Below, in pieces: positions 6,187 to 15,492 of a stretch of DNA of 23,767 nucleotides. The position numbers and the translations under genes were made by a program. How positions within the stretch are numbered: the first letter of the stretch is position 1; every line of letters begins with the position of its first letter. Under the pieces are notes generated by a model. It was not told the DNA's origin. It saw nothing but the letters and a program-made list of their open reading frames with translations, and did not search any database. This DNA comes from Candidatus Hodarchaeota archaeon (GTDB taxonomy: Archaea > Asgardarchaeota > Heimdallarchaeia > Hodarchaeales > Hodarchaeaceae): assembly GCA_029856365.1 (NCBI GenBank), contig JAHQWW010000055.1:1-23767 (forward strand), written 5' to 3'.

Positions 6187-6987
6187 TCATTTATTAGGAT
6201 TCCAAAGTTTTTTTATAAAGTCCTCAAATTTATCTAGATCACCATTCATTGCCAATTCAAGAGCTTTGTTTTCTACTTTAAAATAAAACTCTAAATCCTT
6301 CATTAGGAAGTTATTTAGCAATATCTTTATTGGAATGAGGATGCTTTGAGGTTTATTTGACAAATTTTGACAAAATTCGATTGTGGTCTGTTCTAGCGTC
6401 TCTAGTGGACAAACAATAGTAACCAGCCCCACTTCTTTAGCTTGATTTAAAGACAGTTTTTCGGGAATCATCAGAATTTTTTTGGCATGTTTATAACCAA
6501 TCTTAAACAATGCCATCGTTAAAGCCCCTGTTGCTGGGAAAAGGCTGATATCAATTTCAGGTAATGAAAAGAAAGTCCTGGGATTTTCTCCTGCAATAAC
6601 AAAATCAGCTGCCAGACATAAGATCGTACCCCATGCGACAGCGGGTCCTTGAACTTGATTAATAACAGGTTTTTTTGCTTTCAATATAGTTCTCGTTAGA
6701 TCATTACCACATTGGACAAGTTTGGGAACCTCTTCCGGAGTCAATTGCTGTAACATATTCAAATCTAATCCTGCAGAGAAAGCTTTATTTCCTGAAGAAC
6801 GTATACGGATCACATGGACATTGGAATCGTTATCTGCCTTTTTAATGCCCTTGATTAAGGCTTCAAATTCTTCCATACGTAAGGCATTCCTCTTCTCTGG
6901 CCGATTGATTGTTATTGTACCAATTTGATTTTCAATCTTAACTGATATAGTAGAATTAAACTTAGACGATATTTTTGAATCATTCAA
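6187..6987 (-). CDS. Enoyl-CoA hydratase/isomerase (crotonase) family protein
   Basis: ITINRPEKRNAL, FSAGLDL, KPVINQVQGPAVAWG, FSLPE. Start moved to TTG at 6987 (GGTG RBS 7 nt upstream), which removes the overlap with the upstream gene. Confidence 0.9.
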   Translation of the reverse strand: MNDSKISSKFNSTISVKIENQIGTITINRPEKRNALRMEEFEALIKGIKKADNDSNVHVIRIRSSGNKAFSAGLDLNMLQQLTPEEVPKLVQCGNDLTRTILKAKKPVINQVQGPAVAWGTILCLAADFVIAGENPRTFFSLPEIDISLFPATGALTMALFKIGYKHAKKILMIPEKLSLNQAKEVGLVTIVCPLETLEQTTIEFCQNLSNKPQSILIPIKILLNNFLMKDLEFYFKVENKALELAMNGDLDKFEDFIKKLWNPNK

Positions 6988-7024: not shown

Positions 7025-7552
7025 TCAATACTCCTTTTTGTAGCACTGATTAACAAGAGATTCTAAGATCCTTTGAAAAGAGTTCACATCGCTGCTCTTG
7101 ATGCTGTAATAAGCTTCATGAGGTGCATTTTCTAATACCTCTGGGTCATTAATTGAGATTTTTTGATCAAAATCATTGATAACTTCTATAAAAGCCACAG
7201 GATTTATTGTTCCAACTGTTTTCCGATAGATTTGGTAAAAAACTTTTGCAGCTACCTCTGAATCATGATCAGAAAATAAGATCATTGCAGCTAAAGATTT
7301 GTAAAAACGTGAATGTAATTTATTAGTGAAAAATTGACTAACTGGTTGAATTAGAATGATTTTGACGGGATTATTCAATATAAACAACTTTATAGAGGAG
7401 ACGTTCGCAGATATGACTGATATATTCTCATGTGTGGCCTGATTAGAATATTTCTCTATCAGAAGCTTAATTAATTGACTAGCATAGCCATCTGGATGGC
7501 TTAGAACTGATATTCTTGGAGAAAATTCATCTTGCAGTCCGAATTCGCTCAT
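7025..7552 (-). CDS. Degenerate Rab/Ras-like small GTPase-fold protein (pseudoGTPase candidate)
   Basis: 175 aa. The strand/helix pattern aligns by eye with a Rab G domain (RISVLS...; NNPVKIILIQPVSQFFTNKLHSRFYKSLAAMILF), but the G1, G3, G4 and G5 motifs are absent. Confidence 0.6.
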   Translation of the reverse strand: MSEFGLQDEFSPRISVLSHPDGYASQLIKLLIEKYSNQATHENISVISANVSSIKLFILNNPVKIILIQPVSQFFTNKLHSRFYKSLAAMILFSDHDSEVAAKVFYQIYRKTVGTINPVAFIEVINDFDQKISINDPEVLENAPHEAYYSIKSSDVNSFQRILESLVNQCYKKEY

Positions 7553-7788: not shown

Positions 7789-8268
7789 CTACTTAACAGA
7801 ACTTTTTATAGGGAGATAGAGGTCAAAGATCATTTCATCCTCATGAACAAATGGCGTAATACATTCCTCTAACCCTGGTTCATTCTCCTCATCTAATTCA
7901 TATTTTGTTGATGATAGCCATTCATTTAGATAAAGCCAGGCTTGAAATATATTCCATACTCCTTTGGTTCTAGTAACGGCATATAAACCCCCAGGAATAT
8001 CCTTTAGTTTGATATCACCTTCAGGATTAACATTTGGTTCAACATTTATCAACAACTCATATCCATATTCTTCACCTCTAGGTGACTCAAAATTTCTAGG
8101 TGGTGGATTATTATAACCAAACGTTGTATGTTTCCCGGGATTGTCAAAAAATCCCTTAGGTTTAGCCCATGCAACTAATGCCTCCCATGCATCTGTTTCT
8201 GGTGTCTTACTGATTGCGTGTGTATAAGCAACACGCATTGCTTCAAGTTTTACAATCTTTACAATCAA
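7789..8268 (-). CDS. Stand-alone GyrI-like (AraC effector-binding) small-molecule-binding protein
   Basis: IVKLEAMRVAY, FGYNNP, YGYE, IPGGLYAV, AW..L.EW, LEE...DLYLPI are typical of GyrI-like domains. No HTH domain. Confidence 0.88.
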   Translation of the reverse strand: MIVKIVKLEAMRVAYTHAISKTPETDAWEALVAWAKPKGFFDNPGKHTTFGYNNPPPRNFESPRGEEYGYELLINVEPNVNPEGDIKLKDIPGGLYAVTRTKGVWNIFQAWLYLNEWLSSTKYELDEENEPGLEECITPFVHEDEMIFDLYLPIKSSVK

Positions 8269-8519: not shown

Positions 8520-9341
8520 ATGACAAAAAACTCAGACAAACAACTAAATTTGAAGAAGATCGAGGAACTGCTAACCACATCAAACACCTCTTCGATTTAT
8601 AGTGCATTGACCAAAATTCAACAAGGGAACCTAATTAATGAAGAAGATATGGAAAAAAGATTAGGGATAGATCTTAATGGTTTTTCGAAACACACGCCTC
8701 TCACTAGGGCAACTCGTCAAAAATTACCTAAGGAGGAAGAAATTATAGAGACTATCTCTAAACAAATTTCAATACCTCAATCTGAAGTCCAAGAAATTGA
8801 AGAAACAGCTAATCAGTACCAAGTATCAATATTAAGTCTCGAATCCTCAATTGAAGGTCTTGGGGATTTAGAAAAAACTCTTTTATTTGTGGGAGGTAGG
8901 AAATTAGAATATTCTTTGAAAACCGTGATGACAACTAAACACTCTGAAGAATTAAAAAATGAAATAAACGGTTCTGACGCAGGAATTATCGTTCTTCCCC
9001 CCTTCCTAGATACAGTTGACATTCACACAATCATAAATAAACATGTTTCTGAATTGTGGAGTTATAATGGATTGGGCCCAATTCCTTTTGTTATAATAAT
9101 ATTAGAGAATAATATCACTACTGGAACCGTGCCTGAAAAAGAATTAAACCAATCCGTTCAAGAATTTATTGATAATTTGGTTCCAATTACAAGAGGTAAT
9201 TATGGCTTTGGTATTAAATGTCACTTTATTGAATCATTAAAGTCAGAAAAAGAATTAAAATCAGTTTTACGCACACTAGCTATATTGCTTATTTCGTACG
9301 AACGATTTAAAATACAGAAAAGTGTTCGTATAAAACCATAA
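8520..9341 (+). CDS. Hypothetical protein with a helical N-terminus and a degenerate Rab-like G-domain C-terminus
   Basis: From about aa 100: YQVSIL...GGRKLEYSL...GSDAGIIV...ELWSYNGLGPIPFVII...GFGIKCHFIESLKS, resembling Asgard Rab-like GTPases. No GxxxxGKS/T, DxxG or NKxD. Confidence 0.55.
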   Translation: MTKNSDKQLNLKKIEELLTTSNTSSIYSALTKIQQGNLINEEDMEKRLGIDLNGFSKHTPLTRATRQKLPKEEEIIETISKQISIPQSEVQEIEETANQYQVSILSLESSIEGLGDLEKTLLFVGGRKLEYSLKTVMTTKHSEELKNEINGSDAGIIVLPPFLDTVDIHTIINKHVSELWSYNGLGPIPFVIIILENNITTGTVPEKELNQSVQEFIDNLVPITRGNYGFGIKCHFIESLKSEKELKSVLRTLAILLISYERFKIQKSVRIKP

Positions 9342-9557: not shown

Positions 9558-10124
9558 ATGACTAATAGTAATATGGATCAAATGGAAGGCACCAGTCTAA
9601 TAATAAAACTGTTTGCTTTGATTATTGGATTTATATTCATACTAATAGGTTTGTTTATGATTCTTACCAGTCTTGAACAAACATCTGTGAATGGTGTTAT
9701 TTTTTACTTCTTATTAGCTGTTGTATTTTTTATCATTGCTGGTATATTTGTGTGGCGTATATTAGGTAGAAAACTCATCTATTCTCCTGAAAGGATAGTC
9801 GTTAAAGGTTTTTTAGGATCTAGAAGTATTCATATTGAAAATATCGCTAGTATTGGTAATATGGCGGTTCGTACATCACGAGGAGGAACACCTATATCAA
9901 TTAAATGGATAGAACTTCGTTTAAAAGATGAAGATATAGTGAAATTAGATTTAAATCCTTTTTCTTATTCTGCAAGTATGAATTTCATTTCAATCCTCAA
10001 GAAATACATGGGTATTGATGAGGCTGCATCACAATCTTCAACTAAAGTAGTGTGTGAAAAGTGTGGTTCATCTCTTCCTGCTGGAGCAACTTTTTGCTCT
10101 AAGTGTGGAACATTTACCTCATAA
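9558..10124 (+). CDS. Membrane protein: 2 TM, PH-like beta domain, C-terminal zinc ribbon
   Basis: GGAGGA RBS, two TM helices, IVVKGFLGSRSIHIENI (bacterial-PH-like pattern), and CEKCG...FCSKCG. Confidence 0.75.
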   Translation: MTNSNMDQMEGTSLIIKLFALIIGFIFILIGLFMILTSLEQTSVNGVIFYFLLAVVFFIIAGIFVWRILGRKLIYSPERIVVKGFLGSRSIHIENIASIGNMAVRTSRGGTPISIKWIELRLKDEDIVKLDLNPFSYSASMNFISILKKYMGIDEAASQSSTKVVCEKCGSSLPAGATFCSKCGTFTS

Positions 10125-10169
10125 ATAATCTTTTAATTATTTCATTAATGTATAAGAGTTGATAATGCG

Positions 10170-10967
10170 TTGAATGTACAGAACAGTACACGAGATATAT
10201 TTAAAATTATTCACAATCGTCGATCAATAAGAAAATTCACCAATAAACCAATATCGGATGAAATTCTCGAAACACTCCTTAAAGCAGGAGTTAGAGCACC
10301 ATTTGCAGCCCAATTATACAGTATAATTTATACTAGGAATCCTGAGAAAATGAAAATAAAATGTGGGGTTTATTCGACTACAAAATTATTAATGATTTTC
10401 TTTGTGGACGCCAGAAAGATCGAGAAAATCATTACCCAAAGGGGCTACATATACGACTATGATGACATTAATCTGATTTGGTTAGCAATTCAAGATGCCA
10501 CATTAGTCGCAGAGAATATAATTTTAACTGCAGAAGCACTTGGTCTTGGTTCAGTGCTATTAGGAGTGGTTCCTAATCAGTGGAAAGAAATCAAAGAACG
10601 ATTTAATGTTCCTCCAAGAGTTTTTCCAATAGTGGGGTTATGCATTGGTTATCCTGAACCATCAGCTTTAATGGATGTAAGGCCCCGATATCCCTTGAAA
10701 TACATTGCATTTAAAGATCAATACAAGGATCTAACAGAAAAAGAAGTTCAAGAATGTATGAAGGTGATGGATGAGGGTTATCTAGAACAAGGATATTATA
10801 TCAAACAAAGTGCGAAGATACCGTTGAAAAAAGAATTAGGAGAAGATAAAATCGATTATGATAAATACTCATGGTCAGAGCATATTAGTCGAAAACTGAT
10901 ACAGGGTCGTTGGGGAGAAAAACCCTTTATCTCCCTCTTACGGGATTGTGGTTTCAAATTAGGATAA
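10170..10967 (+). CDS. Nitroreductase family flavoprotein (NfsA/Frp-like)
   Basis: IHNRRSIRKFT, DATLVAENIILTAEALGLGSVLLG, PIVGLCIGYP, RPRYP. Confidence 0.92.
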   Translation: MNVQNSTRDIFKIIHNRRSIRKFTNKPISDEILETLLKAGVRAPFAAQLYSIIYTRNPEKMKIKCGVYSTTKLLMIFFVDARKIEKIITQRGYIYDYDDINLIWLAIQDATLVAENIILTAEALGLGSVLLGVVPNQWKEIKERFNVPPRVFPIVGLCIGYPEPSALMDVRPRYPLKYIAFKDQYKDLTEKEVQECMKVMDEGYLEQGYYIKQSAKIPLKKELGEDKIDYDKYSWSEHISRKLIQGRWGEKPFISLLRDCGFKLG

Positions 10968-10996
10968 TTCTATTTTCTTTTTAGCATTGAAAATGT

Positions 10997-11722
10997 TCAA
11001 CTCTGAAAAAGTATTTCAAAAATCCTCTTAATGAATATAGTAATCGGACTGTCAATATTATCTTGCAAATAGTAAGGTATTAAATCATCTACAATGAGAA
11101 ATGCCTGTAAATAGCTGAACAGTAAGATCCCTATGATTAAAAAACGAGTTAGCTGAATATTTGGTTCATTCTCGAGGCCTTTCTGCAAACTATTGATGGC
11201 TAAAGCTCCAGCTAAAATAATAACAAGAGGTTGGATTTTCATAGAACTATCAATGATGAATTTACAGAAGAATATCTCTCCTAATAATGAAAATAGAATC
11301 ACAGTTTCGTAGTAGAATAGAAAGCGTTTGAATGTTGACACGAATGAAATCTGAGGAGTAACCACCCATAATAGAACAACCCCAGGAATTGCTATTAAAA
11401 TAGCAATAATTGTAGCGCTAAAAATTCGAATCATACCAGTTGCAAATGTAATCAATTCATAAGACACAAATTCTGAGGTTAAGATCACCAAGCTGGAATG
11501 AAAAGTCGAAAAAATTGTCAGAGTCGAAAGGAATAAAGTCAAATAAATCCAAAATGGAAACTCCATGGCACGTTTAGGATTAGTCAAGAGATTTTTTAAT
11601 AAATCCACATTAGCTGTCCAAACATCACGAATTCTATATGTTTCAGGATAAACTTTTTGTGGTGAGCGTTCCTCAACCCAGGTTTCTTCTTTCTTCACAA
11701 TCTGCATTACTTCTTTCACCAA
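10997..11722 (-). CDS. Polytopic membrane protein, Yip1-like
   Basis: LKNLLTNPKRAME precedes about 5 TM segments, and an SF..TF segment follows TM2, as in prokaryotic Yip1-domain proteins. Start is uncertain. Confidence 0.5.
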   Translation of the reverse strand: MVKEVMQIVKKEETWVEERSPQKVYPETYRIRDVWTANVDLLKNLLTNPKRAMEFPFWIYLTLFLSTLTIFSTFHSSLVILTSEFVSYELITFATGMIRIFSATIIAILIAIPGVVLLWVVTPQISFVSTFKRFLFYYETVILFSLLGEIFFCKFIIDSSMKIQPLVIILAGALAINSLQKGLENEPNIQLTRFLIIGILLFSYLQAFLIVDDLIPYYLQDNIDSPITIFIKRIFEILFQS

Positions 11723-11905
11723 TAATGAGTAAACTGAAATCTCTCAACAGTTCTTATTGCAGAATTGTATTTATTCAAAACATCTATTAAAGCTAGATGA
11801 AACTTTCTTTAAGAAAATACTTTGTGGGAGAAACTAACAGAATGATTTTTAGCTAAAAAAATGCAAAGTAATTTTGAAAATGTCAGAAATTCTCAAAAAA
11901 TTGAA

Positions 11906-12820
11906 TCATATTCTCTCACAAAAGAATTTATGATTTATTTCAGAATAATCTTCAGTAATTTGTAATTGATGATTTTTCACTTCAATGATACCGTTAAGTC
12001 GAAGAATTTTGACATAATATGAAATGAGAGATTTGCTATTCCCTGTAAAGAGTGAAAGATCTTTCTGAGAACAATGACTGGTAGAGGTCACCAAAAACTC
12101 CAGTATTTTTTTGATATTCTGATTTCTATTAAGAGAATACCATACTTTATGTTCTGGAGAAAACTTAGAATCACTCATAAAGAAATGTTTACTCTTACCT
12201 AATCTAAACGATTCGATTTCTCCTGATTCAAGATATCGGATATGATATTGGACTACTCCCATAGCGAGGTCGGTTCTTCGTTGGATTTCTCGGAGCCTGA
12301 TACCTGGATTCTCATTTATAGTTTCTTTGATAATGAAACGATTTCTGTTTCTTAATGATTCCTTCTTTGTTTCTTGACCTTCTTGGGTATCAATAGATAA
12401 TGTTCCAATTACTAGCAGAAAGCTATGAACTGACTCTCCTAAACCGTATAATTCTCTATCTGTAAAAAGAAATGATGTCATTTGAGAAAGTTGAGTCTTA
12501 ATTAATGTTTGTAAATCACGAAAAACCATTAAGGAAATATCAGTACTCGTTATTTGATTATTGATAATTACTTCAAGAGATATAACAGTACAGGTGCTAG
12601 TACCAAAATTTATTTCTTGAAACATCCTAAAGATCAGAATATCTAGCTCAGAATAGGTATTACAAGCTAGATTAATTTCATCTCTATTTTGGGAGAGATG
12701 ATTTTTATTAGAAAAAGCTTGAATTGAATGGAAAAACAGCATTAGAGCCAGAAAGAAGTAAACTAGCTTTATCTGCGATTTTCTCGAATAAATCACACTC
12801 ACCAGTTCGCCAAGTTGCAA
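11906..12820 (-). CDS. Double winged-helix regulator (COG3398-like) with N-terminal hydrophobic segment(s)
   Basis: R..I...INENPGIRLREIQRRTDLAMGVVQYHIRYLE and a second HTH SQKDLSLFTGNSKSLISYYVKILRLNGII. N-terminal TM/signal. Start is uncertain. Confidence 0.8.
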   Translation of the reverse strand: MQLGELVSVIYSRKSQIKLVYFFLALMLFFHSIQAFSNKNHLSQNRDEINLACNTYSELDILIFRMFQEINFGTSTCTVISLEVIINNQITSTDISLMVFRDLQTLIKTQLSQMTSFLFTDRELYGLGESVHSFLLVIGTLSIDTQEGQETKKESLRNRNRFIIKETINENPGIRLREIQRRTDLAMGVVQYHIRYLESGEIESFRLGKSKHFFMSDSKFSPEHKVWYSLNRNQNIKKILEFLVTSTSHCSQKDLSLFTGNSKSLISYYVKILRLNGIIEVKNHQLQITEDYSEINHKFFCERI

Positions 12821-12963
12821 TTGAAATCCTAAGGTTATAATTCTTTCCTATTTGGTGCGGTCAAAAGATTGTACTACTATAAAAAAGACTAACTACAATA
12901 GAATAACTGTACCATAATTGATAAAATATCCTTAAAAAGGAATTTATTTCGTGATAGATTGCA

Positions 12964-13677
12964 ATGGTTTCCAACTCATATAATACAAACCCAATTACAA
13001 TTAAAGTCTCGAATGTAACAAAAGCTTTTATTATTGGTAAAACAAGAATCACCATTTTGGATGAATTAGACTTCCAATGTTATGAAAATGAATTCACAAT
13101 AATCTCAGGGCCCTCAGGTTCGGGAAAATCAACTTTTTTAGCAGTAATTGGAGGATTAACTCGCGTAGACGAGGGACACGTGCGAGTGCTAAATCATGAC
13201 TTAAATATAATGGATGAAGAAGCATTGGCACTTTTTAGATCTGTGTATGTTGGTTTTGTATTTCAAACAGGTCATTTAATAGACTCCCTGACGGTACTGG
13301 AAAATGTAATGTTACCTGTTGAACTTGCAGGAAAAAAAGATTTAGATGATAAATCGTATGATGAGAGAGCTTGGAGTCTCTTGGAAGAATTTAAACTCAA
13401 TGAAAGAGCCCATTCTTTACCAGTAATGCTATCGGGAGGTGAGTATCAAAGAACAGCATTTATTAGAGCATTAGTCTTGGATCCTGACTTATTACTCATC
13501 GATGAACCCACATCGAACCAAGATATACAAACAACCGAGATCATTCACCAAAAATTATCCAATTTAAAAGGGAAAAAAAATCTCATTGTAGTTACACATG
13601 AAAGACAGCTTTTTCCTCTAGCAGACAAAATCCTCACTCCTGTTAATGGAAAATTAGTTCCTTATGAAGTGGATTGA
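12964..13677 (+). CDS. ABC transporter ATP-binding protein, LolD/MacB/SalX type
   Basis: GPSGSGKST, VGFVFQ, LSGGEYQR, LLLIDEPTSNQD, VVTHE. Confidence 0.95.
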   Translation: MVSNSYNTNPITIKVSNVTKAFIIGKTRITILDELDFQCYENEFTIISGPSGSGKSTFLAVIGGLTRVDEGHVRVLNHDLNIMDEEALALFRSVYVGFVFQTGHLIDSLTVLENVMLPVELAGKKDLDDKSYDERAWSLLEEFKLNERAHSLPVMLSGGEYQRTAFIRALVLDPDLLLIDEPTSNQDIQTTEIIHQKLSNLKGKKNLIVVTHERQLFPLADKILTPVNGKLVPYEVD

Positions 13678-13683
13678 AGTAAG

Positions 13684-15492
13684 ATGAGTAGTCTTAATCT
13701 TGCTTTGAAAGACATTCAGCGACAAAAACAGAGATCGTTACTATTCATTGCCGTACAGTCCTGTATAACCGCTTCGGGAATGATTATGTATGGTCTAGCT
13801 ATTGTTATCCAAGCTCAAATAGGAAAATCACAAGCTTATTTCAACAATTCGATCATTCAGATCTTCCACGGTTATCTTAATTTTCTATTGGTTTTTGCAG
13901 TAGTGACTGGTATATTAATCGCAGCCATTTTAAGCAGTCTCCTGACAATTGCTAGGATGGATGACTTGGCTGTTTTACTTGCTTTGGGTGGAACATTCAA
14001 ACGAATTCAGAGAGTTCCTTTAGCTCAGATCTTCTTACTGACGCTCATTGCTGGATTAGTAGGATGGATTGGAAGTATCATTGGACTTTCCATCTTAACA
14101 ATCACATTAAGACTTGAAGCAGTAAATATTGGAGAAACTTTAAATTTATCTTTTGGGCTTCTGTATATTGTTTTTCAAATCATTGGTACGTATTTTGCTG
14201 CTGGATTTATTGTCAACCTTCTCATTCGAAAGAAATTCAGTGAAATAATTGATGGTCAGTATGAAGTTGAAGAGGTTGATCAAGACAAGATTTGGGGGAT
14301 ATCAATGCGAGGAAAAATTGGTTTTCGACTAGCCTATCTCTTCAATAAAAGATCCAGAATATTATCATGGGTAATGATTGGGGGAACTTTCATGCTCATA
14401 TTTCTGACTACATTCGGAATTCTGGGGGGGAATATAATCAATAACACAACGAATTCATATATTGAACGTGGTTATGGCACAAATGTTTGCGTAGTTACCC
14501 CGCCTGAGCTAGAACCACTATTACGTGAACTTTATAATCCTTCTAGTGAACTTCAGTTTATATTTCTAAATTCTAGTTATGTTGTTCCATCATTATTTGT
14601 TGAACGATTACCAAAGAACTGTACATACGAAGCCAGACTATTATTAGTAGGAACAATCAGAATGTTAACTGATATTAAAACTACGCCAAACGGAACTATA
14701 CTTGGAGGGGGGAATAAAACGATGGAAACCTATTATTGGGGAGTTAATGAATCCACATTCTCAATATTTGACTATTATGGCACTTATATCACTCCTCCAA
14801 GATCTAAAAATGCCCAAATAGGTGATGGAATGCTTCAATCTTATCCAAATCAAGAAGTTGTCGCAGCCTTTATTCCTAAAGGTGAGATCATCAAGGATCG
14901 TTTCAACATTGAGGGAGTGATCATGGATCCATTTGCCCGTGGACATTGTGTCTATATGGATTCCAGCAAATTGGTTGAAATGAAAAACCTTCAGGATGAA
15001 ACTGTAAAGAATGTGGTATTTATTGAAAATCCTGATGCTGAAATAATCAATCTAATTGAAGAATTTTCATTAGGGTATTTTTTCTTAGATATCTACAAAG
15101 AAAAATATTTTACCTTTAGTAATTCTTTTTGGGTAATATCAACAACAGCCTTTATTCCTGCGATGATCTCTGCAGGACTTTCTTTAGTTGCTTATTCAGG
15201 ATTGATAGCTAGGGTTATACTTATCAAAGATCTGAGAATTCTGCGGCTTTTAGGTGCAAATCCAAAAACTTTGAAGAGGGTCATCCTATGGGTAAACATC
15301 ATTCTATTGCTATATGCAGCCCCTTTAGCTGTACTTTTCGGCTTTACTTTGGCCTATTCATTTCTAATTGCTGATCCAATCCTTCCATCTATTCAAGCAT
15401 GGATAGTTCTTGTTGTAGAGTTTCTAGTCATGATGTTAATCATTTACAGATATATTCATTCCTTTTTCAAAGACTTCTATAGCGATCTCTAA
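13684..15492 (+). CDS. FtsX/MacB-like ABC permease with two permease domains
   Basis: ARMDDLAVLLALGG and KDLRILRLLGANP FtsX-type motifs. One large extracytoplasmic region in the second half. Starts 6 bp after the ATPase. Confidence 0.88.
   Translation: MSSLNLALKDIQRQKQRSLLFIAVQSCITASGMIMYGLAIVIQAQIGKSQAYFNNSIIQIFHGYLNFLLVFAVVTGILIAAILSSLLTIARMDDLAVLLALGGTFKRIQRVPLAQIFLLTLIAGLVGWIGSIIGLSILTITLRLEAVNIGETLNLSFGLLYIVFQIIGTYFAAGFIVNLLIRKKFSEIIDGQYEVEEVDQDKIWGISMRGKIGFRLAYLFNKRSRILSWVMIGGTFMLIFLTTFGILGGNIINNTTNSYIERGYGTNVCVVTPPELEPLLRELYNPSSELQFIFLNSSYVVPSLFVERLPKNCTYEARLLLVGTIRMLTDIKTTPNGTILGGGNKTMETYYWGVNESTFSIFDYYGTYITPPRSKNAQIGDGMLQSYPNQEVVAAFIPKGEIIKDRFNIEGVIMDPFARGHCVYMDSSKLVEMKNLQDETVKNVVFIENPDAEIINLIEEFSLGYFFLDIYKEKYFTFSNSFWVISTTAFIPAMISAGLSLVAYSGLIARVILIKDLRILRLLGANPKTLKRVILWVNIILLLYAAPLAVLFGFTLAYSFLIADPILPSIQAWIVLVVEFLVMMLIIYRYIHSFFKDFYSDL

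Follow-up and report, generated by a model that had tools for sequence, protein, structure and literature searches.

A conserved Rab-like protein without G motifs in a Hodarchaeota archaeon: a probable pseudoGTPase of Asgard archaea

Introduction

What becomes of a small GTPase when every one of its nucleotide-binding motifs has been replaced is the question raised by a gene of Candidatus Hodarchaeota archaeon (assembly GCA_029856365.1), located at positions 7025-7552 of contig JAHQWW010000055.1 and termed P0001 here. The window analyzed is the whole stretch of 23,767 nucleotides starting at position 1 of this contig. Small GTPases have expanded in Asgard archaea much as in eukaryotes, which is why these archaea attract study, and P0001 probably adds a lineage-restricted member to the pseudoGTPases, a class that is documented mainly in eukaryotes. 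With regard to its function, the protein is probably a class-i-type pseudoGTPase, i.e., a nucleotide-independent binding module of Rab-like descent.

Results

Replacement of the G Motifs in P0001

P0001 is an intact open reading frame (ORF) that cannot be extended, as no other start codon lies between the upstream stop and its ATG (Table 1). For a residue-by-residue comparison, the P0001 family was aligned profile against profile (hhalign) with 25 canonical Ras-family GTPases from the same genome. In the columns of this alignment all five motifs, G1 to G5, are substituted. The stretch at the place of the P-loop carries Ala instead of the Lys, Ser instead of the first Gly and a Pro at position 3, and the P-loop glycines are gone. 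In the same alignment, FYKSL is placed on YYRGA, VAFIE-VIND on strand β5 and NKxD, and YYSIKS on strand β6 and SAK. K78 in the switch-II-like segment is almost invariant across the wider family. A pattern search over the whole protein detected none of the G1, G3 and G4 patterns. The RabF motifs, as defined in the legend to Figure 1 of PMC10933270 and by established knowledge, are likewise missing, as IGVDF, KLQIWDTAGQE and RFxxxTxxYYRGA are faced by ISANV, KIILIQPVSQ and FYKSL in P0001. The C-terminus has no CC or CXC that could provide a prenylatable Cys pair, and C170, the sole cysteine nearby, lies inside helix 5.

A sequence-only reading made earlier, by eye, had described a full-length, intact ORF of 175 amino acids with the layout of a Ras-superfamily G domain, had placed SHPDGYAS on G1, QPVSQ on DTAGQ, VAFIEV on G4 and YYSIKS on G5, and had regarded every nucleotide-binding motif as replaced. 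The ATG-started ORF on the minus strand has the sequence quoted there, the profile-profile alignment reproduces the placement motif by motif and finds no NKxD, and the proposed layout is borne out by the homology described in the following section.

Homology to Ras-Family GTPases

Judged by sequence comparison, P0001 is clearly homologous to Ras-family GTPases. When the family profile, from which the near-canonical members P0033 and P0036 had been left out, was compared with the 25 canonical GTPases, hhalign returned a probability of 98.5% and an E-value of 1.9e-15 for a match of P0001 residues 8-171 to residues 3-170; with the orthologues only, the probability was 81% (E 1.2e-5). Pairwise BLASTP of P0001 against the canonical paralogue C171:37022-37558 gave an E-value of 5e-7 at 23% identity, and an exhaustive phmmer search of 1.84 billion representatives matched only 21 clusters. 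Several distant members of the family exceed the Pfam Ras gathering score of 21.6, namely P0026 (31.7 bits), P0032 (29.9), P0028 (25.4) and P0022 (23.3). P0036, a leucine-rich repeat (LRR)-Ras/Roc protein with GHPSELKT and DTAGQE and without NKxD, reaches 106 bits.

Origin Within the Genome

The genome to which the window belongs is available as 4.24 Mb on 204 contigs and is 84% complete. Here, a hidden Markov model (HMM) of the family matched 39 ORFs, 12 of them without a P-loop, including one fragment of 101 amino acids. At least 11 P-loop-less paralogues are full length (named examples in Table 1), and several are tandem neighbours of one another or of canonical GTPases. Their motifs form a graded series. 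At its canonical end, C171:37022 features GSGSVGKT, DTAGQE and NKKD. In the intermediate C184:5703 a P-loop glycine is lost while K-T is kept (G.P..LKT), DTAGQE is kept and NKxD is gone. Next in the series come C180:3265 with DTSGK and then the protein of the window with SHPD and QP.SQ. The G.P..LKT form with DTAGQE and without NKxD also occurs fused to LRRs, in P0036.

In a phylogenetic tree (FastTree, LG+gamma) the P-loop-less proteins, except C66:15167 and C184:4038, constitute a single clade with a Shimodaira-Hasegawa (SH)-like support of 0.999, and its sister is the canonical C171:37022 (support 0.87). The ancestry of P0001 thus leads to a single Rab-like subfamily among the small GTPases of Asgard archaea. 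Since the tree groups it with canonical GTPases encoded in the same genome, its origin is probably independent of the known pseudoGTPase families. The two exceptions fall inside another canonical clade, which implies a second, independent loss of the P-loop. The nearest canonical GTPase, C171:37022-37558 (locus L006, C171:35540-39052), is flanked by an Arf/EF-Tu-like G protein of 250 amino acids on one side and by a protein of 300 amino acids with a weak gelsolin-repeat match on the other.

Predicted Fold

AlphaFold2 (AF2), supplied with the orthologue alignment, yielded a model of P0001 with a predicted local distance difference test (pLDDT) score of 79.5 and a predicted template-modelling (TM) score of 0.78. 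The elements follow each other in the order β1-α1-(extra strand)-β2-β3-α2-β4-α3-β5-(extended loop)-β6-α5, with strands at residues 13-18, 39-44 (the extra strand), 49-58, 61-70, 88-93, 119-125 and 143-152, helices at 22-34, 81-84, 96-113 and 156-174 and an extended loop in place of helix 4. Helix 1 begins at residue 22, i.e., two residues early, and leaves a loop of only three residues that contains a proline. The 50 best PDB chains found by Foldseek all belong to the Ras superfamily (E 1.5e-7 to 3.6e-6, TM 0.53-0.67); Ran-GDP, Rab9/21, RIT1 and centaurin-gamma lead the ranking and KRas is also among them. With VIA-align, small GTPases occupied the top of the ranking of 48,161 representative chains, headed by Rab23 with a Z-score of 14.3 and a root-mean-square deviation (rmsd) of 3.3 over 146 residues. 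The ESM Atlas holds its own, independent model of P0001, and this model reaches TM 0.69-0.72 to Rab/Ras clusters. The models provide consistent evidence for a predicted G-domain fold.

Conservation, Selection and Distribution

A word-indexed search retrieved 16 intact orthologues of 174-198 amino acids and 61-87% identity, labeled by their submitters as Heimdallarchaeota, Hodarchaeota, Promethearchaeota and, in one case, Thorarchaeota. Residues S18, H19, P20, D21, Q69, P70 and E123, all at former G-motif positions, are invariant in the alignment of 17 orthologues, almost all of helix 3 is invariant too, and the wider family largely keeps SHPD, QP and FVE. The helix 3 stretch D95-R110, where conservation within P0001 is highest, is a candidate interaction face. 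Nearly invariant as well is the N-terminal MSEFGL (residues 1-6, 7535-7552 on the minus strand), which is modelled as disordered (pLDDT 43) and may be a short linear motif. Many of the orthologues terminate in a basic tail (RRK).

The ratio of nonsynonymous to synonymous substitution rates (dN/dS, Nei-Gojobori) between P0001 and its closest orthologue (L011) is 0.10 at a dS of 0.60, compared to 0.15 for the neighbouring crotonase; for more divergent pairs dS is saturated. The low ratio indicates strong purifying selection, and together with the intact orthologues, in which the motifs are replaced in the same way, it shows that the gene is not in decay. The sequence-only reading had named a fold other than a G domain, orthologues with intact motifs and a dN/dS near 1 as observations that would speak against it; what was found instead is a modelled Ras-superfamily G-fold, orthologues that share the replacements and a ratio far from 1.

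Altogether 300 Asgard genomes were searched for the family. At E ≤ 1e-10 the orthologue HMM found matches in 15 of the 20 other genomes of the GTDB genus to which the window belongs and none in 279 other genomes of the Asgard phylum spanning 69 other genera. Clear orthologues (E ≤ 1e-40) are present in half of the genomes of the genus (11 of 22), and in ten of these eleven the match contains no stop. The search thus placed the fully degenerate family in this one GTDB genus only.

The Linked Crotonase

The gene downstream of P0001 encodes a crotonase-fold protein. Its longest ORF, starting at TTG 7056, would overlap P0001. However, a GGTG resembling a Shine-Dalgarno (SD) sequence is present at 6998-6995, 7 nucleotides upstream of TTG 6987, and crotonase orthologues begin about 20 residues ahead of a conserved ENQI.TITINRPEKRNAL block. 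Given these N-termini and the GGTG, the start at TTG 6987 with a gap of 37 nucleotides is the better reading, and it agrees with the distance that had been stated from the sequence. Co-transcription of the two genes is plausible from this arrangement.

A co-oriented crotonase gene directly downstream was seen in G000, G216, G210, G138, G249 and G061 and at loci L011, L013 and L014, some of which may derive from the same genomes. Adjacent copies are 71-84% identical to that of the window, and in all six genomes carrying this paralogue it is adjacent to the pseudoGTPase gene. On the other hand, the crotonases of pseudoGTPase-less genomes, and likewise the additional copies found in G138 and G061, share only about 60% identity with that of the window. 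From this difference, the linked crotonase is a lineage-specific paralogue that occurs only beside the pseudoGTPase. In G255/L012 the pseudoGTPase is kept without this paralogue. The Asgard clade of the linked crotonase has GPAVAWGTILCLAADF where canonical relatives show GGG.E[LV]A. Of the two hydratase glutamates, with roles as in rat enoyl-CoA hydratase (ECH), the first is thereby replaced by Ile or Leu and the PE glutamate is kept. As the first glutamate is replaced, the linked protein is probably not a plain enoyl-CoA hydratase.

A Second G-Fold Protein Without G Motifs

Upstream of P0001, the window encodes a second pseudoGTPase of 273 amino acids. According to AF2, one helix is the only ordered part of its residues 1-95, and residues 98-271 adopt a G-fold of the order β1-α1-β2-β3-α2-β4-α3-β5-α4-β6-α5, with most of this domain at a pLDDT of 82-93. 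The best Foldseek matches are the Thorarchaeota Rab structures 7EZE and 7EZB, and G motifs are absent from the protein. Its family has 18 members in the same lineages as the P0001 orthologues. Since the HMM of this family matches a different canonical clade (C32, C20, C66 and C18:71681), the protein represents a third independent loss. Hence, at least three independent P-loop losses have occurred among the G-domain proteins of this genome.

Clear orthologues of the 273-residue protein (E ≤ 1e-100) are present in six genomes of the genus, all of which also have a P0001 orthologue. Three more genomes contain only weak partial matches (E 1e-10 to 1e-14), and two of these have no clear P0001 orthologue. 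In five of the six genomes the two genes are at most 1.5 kb apart. Their arrangement is divergent in three of these (G000, G210, G174) and convergent in the other two (G249, G255), and about 1 Mb separates them in G240. That the genes stay close despite a rearrangement mildly favours a functional link.

Discussion

Proposed Function and Alternatives

As far as sequence and model tell, P0001 most likely neither binds nor hydrolyses guanine nucleotides, because it has neither the Lys nor the Ser/Thr of the P-loop pair, the loop is reduced to three residues with a proline, and the Mg-coordinating Thr and Asp as well as the guanine-recognition residues are missing. The HPD at the place of the P-loop would cap the helix at its N-terminal end and thereby close the phosphate hole, and the protein may serve as a constitutive, nucleotide-independent binding module that mimics one fixed ancestral state. 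The sequence-only reading had likewise proposed a non-catalytic G-fold adaptor, an interpretation which the evidence on fold, homology, motif loss and selection supports, with the adaptor role itself putative. Candidate binding surfaces are the segment corresponding to switch II, helix 3 and the acidic loop at the place of helix 4; a constitutive surface is suggested because the strongest family-specific conservation falls on exactly these parts. The likeliest partners would be encoded nearby, i.e., the 8520-9341 protein, in a nucleotide-free pair of two G domains, and the crotonase, which is probably co-transcribed. A more specific proposal is that P0001 and the C-terminal domain of the 8520-9341 protein form an obligate nucleotide-free heterodimer that scaffolds or localizes the crotonase and/or the eight-cysteine protein encoded in the window (Table 1). 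We consider it rather unlikely in this detailed form. If true, the pair would be a "frozen" counterpart of Rag-type pairs and a Heimdall-group module built wholly from dead GTPases.

Several observations weigh against a nucleotide-independent binding module of Rab-like descent. P0001 alone matched nothing in Pfam or NCBIfam scans, and a profile search with it against PDB chain sequences returned nothing at E ≤ 10. Residues H19, P20, D21, Q69, P70 and E123 of the former pocket rank among the most conserved, which could equally mean a new ligand site. Confidence in the model is moderate, with pLDDT values near 61-62 in the switch-II loop and the helix-4 region. The loss of nucleotide binding is read from sequence and model, and the binding partners are candidates. 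The phylogeny was calculated with FastTree only and combines SH-like supports with long branches, such that the order of the ladder is perhaps partly a long-branch artefact. The paralogues in the same genome have no recurrent neighbour (HSP20, a metallophosphatase, an ornithine cyclodeaminase, a RING-like protein and an M14 peptidase were seen). All context evidence comes from one genus, in which shared synteny is expected anyway, and adjacency arguments within this genus are weak because a wider syntenic block surrounds the locus.

The conserved pocket residues lead to a fairly improbable alternative, namely that the remodelled pocket with His19, Asp21, Gln69 and Glu123 has been re-purposed for another ligand, a metal or a non-canonical nucleotide, in a protein that would act as sensor or enzyme. 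Such a ligand could have a connection to the CoA chemistry of the crotonase paralogue next door. No orthologue deviates at the residues replacing G1, G3 and G4, most of which the wider family retains as well, the linkage to a crotonase-fold gene is tight, and a GyrI-like ligand-binding protein adjoins two orthologous loci, with another one (L015:2401-3021) near the 43%-identical relative P0019. BLAST revealed, however, that the GyrI-like protein on the P0019 side and the 249-residue protein upstream there are unlike the GyrI-like and the 273-residue proteins of the window, and the recurrence of GyrI-like genes near family members may be coincidence. Furthermore, Pfam and NCBIfam matched P0001 to no known ligand-binding family, the three-residue proline loop before helix 1 would not form an anion hole in the model, H-P-D fits a structural helix cap and the guanine-specificity residues are all gone. 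That P0001 primarily serves the downstream crotonase paralogue, as its accessory subunit or its regulator, and is made from the same mRNA and with a metabolic role instead of one in GTPase signalling, appears improbable to us. It would explain the co-orientation, the short gap and the SD-like GGTG, and also that the ECH paralogue of at least 71% identity is found only directly downstream of a pseudoGTPase, in six of six genomes, while pseudoGTPase-less genomes carry only the more distant copy. G255/L012, on the other hand, has the pseudoGTPase without this ECH, the evidence stems from one genus and adjacency does not equal binding.

Two further possibilities were rejected as very improbable. 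The loss of all catalytic motifs would be expected of a decaying relic, i.e., a GTPase pseudogene that became functionless recently. This is ruled out by the selection data, as the dN/dS is 0.10, 16 intact orthologues share the replaced motifs and in ten of eleven genomes of the genus the match is free of stops. Equally remote is convergence, in which the likeness to a G-fold would be generic and P0001 a Rossmann- or flavodoxin-like alpha/beta protein unrelated to GTPases; the missing Pfam and PDB sequence matches of P0001 alone and an rmsd of 3-5 Å to Ras-family structures would agree with it, but the profile alignment, BLASTP, the relatives with Pfam Ras matches and the graded intermediates rule it out.

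Comparison With Known Systems

As a probable nucleotide-independent binding module of Rab-like descent, P0001 invites comparison with three kinds of G-fold proteins. In fold, length and order of elements it equals the canonical Rab-like GTPases of Asgard archaea (Thor-Rab 7EZB/7EZE, PMC10933270; C171:37022-37558). Helix 1, switch II (FF.KL...YY), β4 and β5 remain recognizably homologous to those of the subfamily with GS.xVGKT, DTAGQE and NKxD. Different from these GTPases, its five G motifs are replaced and helix 4 has given way to an acidic proline loop, and a nucleotide switch would not be expected from the sequence.

The class i pseudoGTPase domains pG1 and pG2 of p190RhoGAP (PMC5593906) and the pseudoGTPase domain (psGD) of AAGAB (PMC12490416) act by protein-protein contacts. 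CENP-M, p190RhoGAP pG1/pG2 and the psGD of AAGAB/Irc6 resemble P0001 in having a Ras-like G-fold without the motifs, kept by selection and with a presumed function in protein contacts. P0001 differs from the eukaryotic class i proteins in its probably independent origin and as a stand-alone single domain, and its loss of nucleotide binding is deduced from the motifs only. CENP-M, AAGAB/Irc6 and p190RhoGAP were absent from the 50 best fold matches of P0001 (Foldseek, VIA). The Rag/Gtr heterodimer and an Asgard RagA-like GTPase (8YL2) offer the third comparison, because two different G-fold proteins are involved there as they are with 7025-7552 and 8520-9341; 8YL2 is among the fold matches of P0001 (Z 11.2, VIA). 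In contrast to Rag-type pairs, both members at the locus are without G motifs and without a roadblock C-terminal domain, and the likeness is a functional analogy known here from the genes alone.

A full-text search found no paper that pairs "Asgard" with "pseudoGTPase", although subscription journals are mostly outside its coverage and absence is not proof. Papers containing both "pseudoGTPase" and "archaea" leave the two unconnected, and the Thor-Rab paper (PMC10933270) leaves degenerate forms unmentioned. One genome here displays the steps by which a working Rab-like GTPase can turn into a motif-less, strongly selected protein, and the evolution of pseudoenzymes from GTPases thereby becomes testable in a prokaryote by means of canonical, intermediate and dead paralogues. 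Confinement of the family to one genus limits this significance.

Further Features of the Locus

The coordinates of all features are collected in Table 1.

Table 1. Features of P0001 and its surroundings in the window, and P-loop-less paralogues elsewhere in the same genome.
Feature	Position	Strand	Properties	Basis
PseudoGTPase gene P0001	7025..7552	-	175 amino acids, ATG start, TGA stop at 7027-7025	ORF and translation
Former G1/P-loop, S18-H-P-D-G-Y-A-S25	7478..7501	-	Length equal to GxxxxGK[ST]	hhalign columns, AF2
V46 at switch-I (G2) Thr position	7415..7417	-		hhalign column mapping
Former G3 (DTAGQ), now Q69-P-V-S-Q73	7334..7348	-		hhalign mapping
Switch-II-equivalent segment F74-Y84	7301..7333	-	Resembles nearest canonical subfamily: FFGKLRPSYY to FFTNKLHSRFY	
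Helix 3 and cap, D95-R110 (DxDS..AAKVFYQ.YR)	7223..7270	-	Model helix 96-113	Invariant alignment columns
Former G4 (NKxD), now E123-V-I-N-D127	7172..7186	-	E123 invariant	hhalign mapping
Remodelled helix-4 region I134-P144	7121..7153	-	Acidic motif [ED]PE.LE..P conserved, two invariant prolines; modelled as extended with low confidence	
Former G5 (SAK), now I151-K-S153	7094..7102	-		hhalign mapping
TATA-like box TTATAAAA	7572..7579	-	Centred about 24 nucleotides upstream of P0001 ATG	Sequence reading
Crotonase-fold gene (ECH_1)	6187..6987	-	Co-oriented, 37 nucleotides downstream of P0001, TTG start 6987	Pfam 9e-42
Second pseudoGTPase	8520..9341	+	273 amino acids	AF2, Foldseek, family HMM, co-location
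Conserved protein of about 106 amino acids	3964-4287	-	Eight invariant Cys and an invariant His, no Pfam family	
GyrI-like/Cass2 ligand-binding protein, stand-alone	7789-8268	-	Just upstream of the pseudoGTPase gene here and in L011	
P-loop-less paralogues (named)	C184:5703-6344, C180:3265-3786, C180:3815-4552, C49:17586-18209, C97:7564-8103, C183:6696-7247, C136:214-756, C66:15167-15709, C184:4038-4589			

The TTATAAAA at 7579-7572 may be part of an archaeal promoter of P0001's own, from which a leaderless or short-leader mRNA would be made. A scan for sigma-70 promoters and terminators gave fewer sites than in shuffled sequence, its model being inapplicable to archaea. Among the distant relatives of P0001, P0018 and P0026 are located on tiny contigs and P0020 has no neighbours in common. 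The wider syntenic block, which comprises positions 9558-15492 of the window and is shared with L012-L014 and several genomes of the genus, encodes a zinc-ribbon membrane protein and a nitroreductase as well as an HTH_HVO_0163 regulator and an ABC ATPase, the latter accompanied by a partner of 600 amino acids.

Relatives of the eight-cysteine protein are encoded at L011:8063-8383, L012:5987-6310, L013:7008-7328 and L014:10206-10520. In five of five loci its gene is a co-oriented neighbour of the pseudoGTPase gene, and in L012 it lies between both pseudoGTPase genes.

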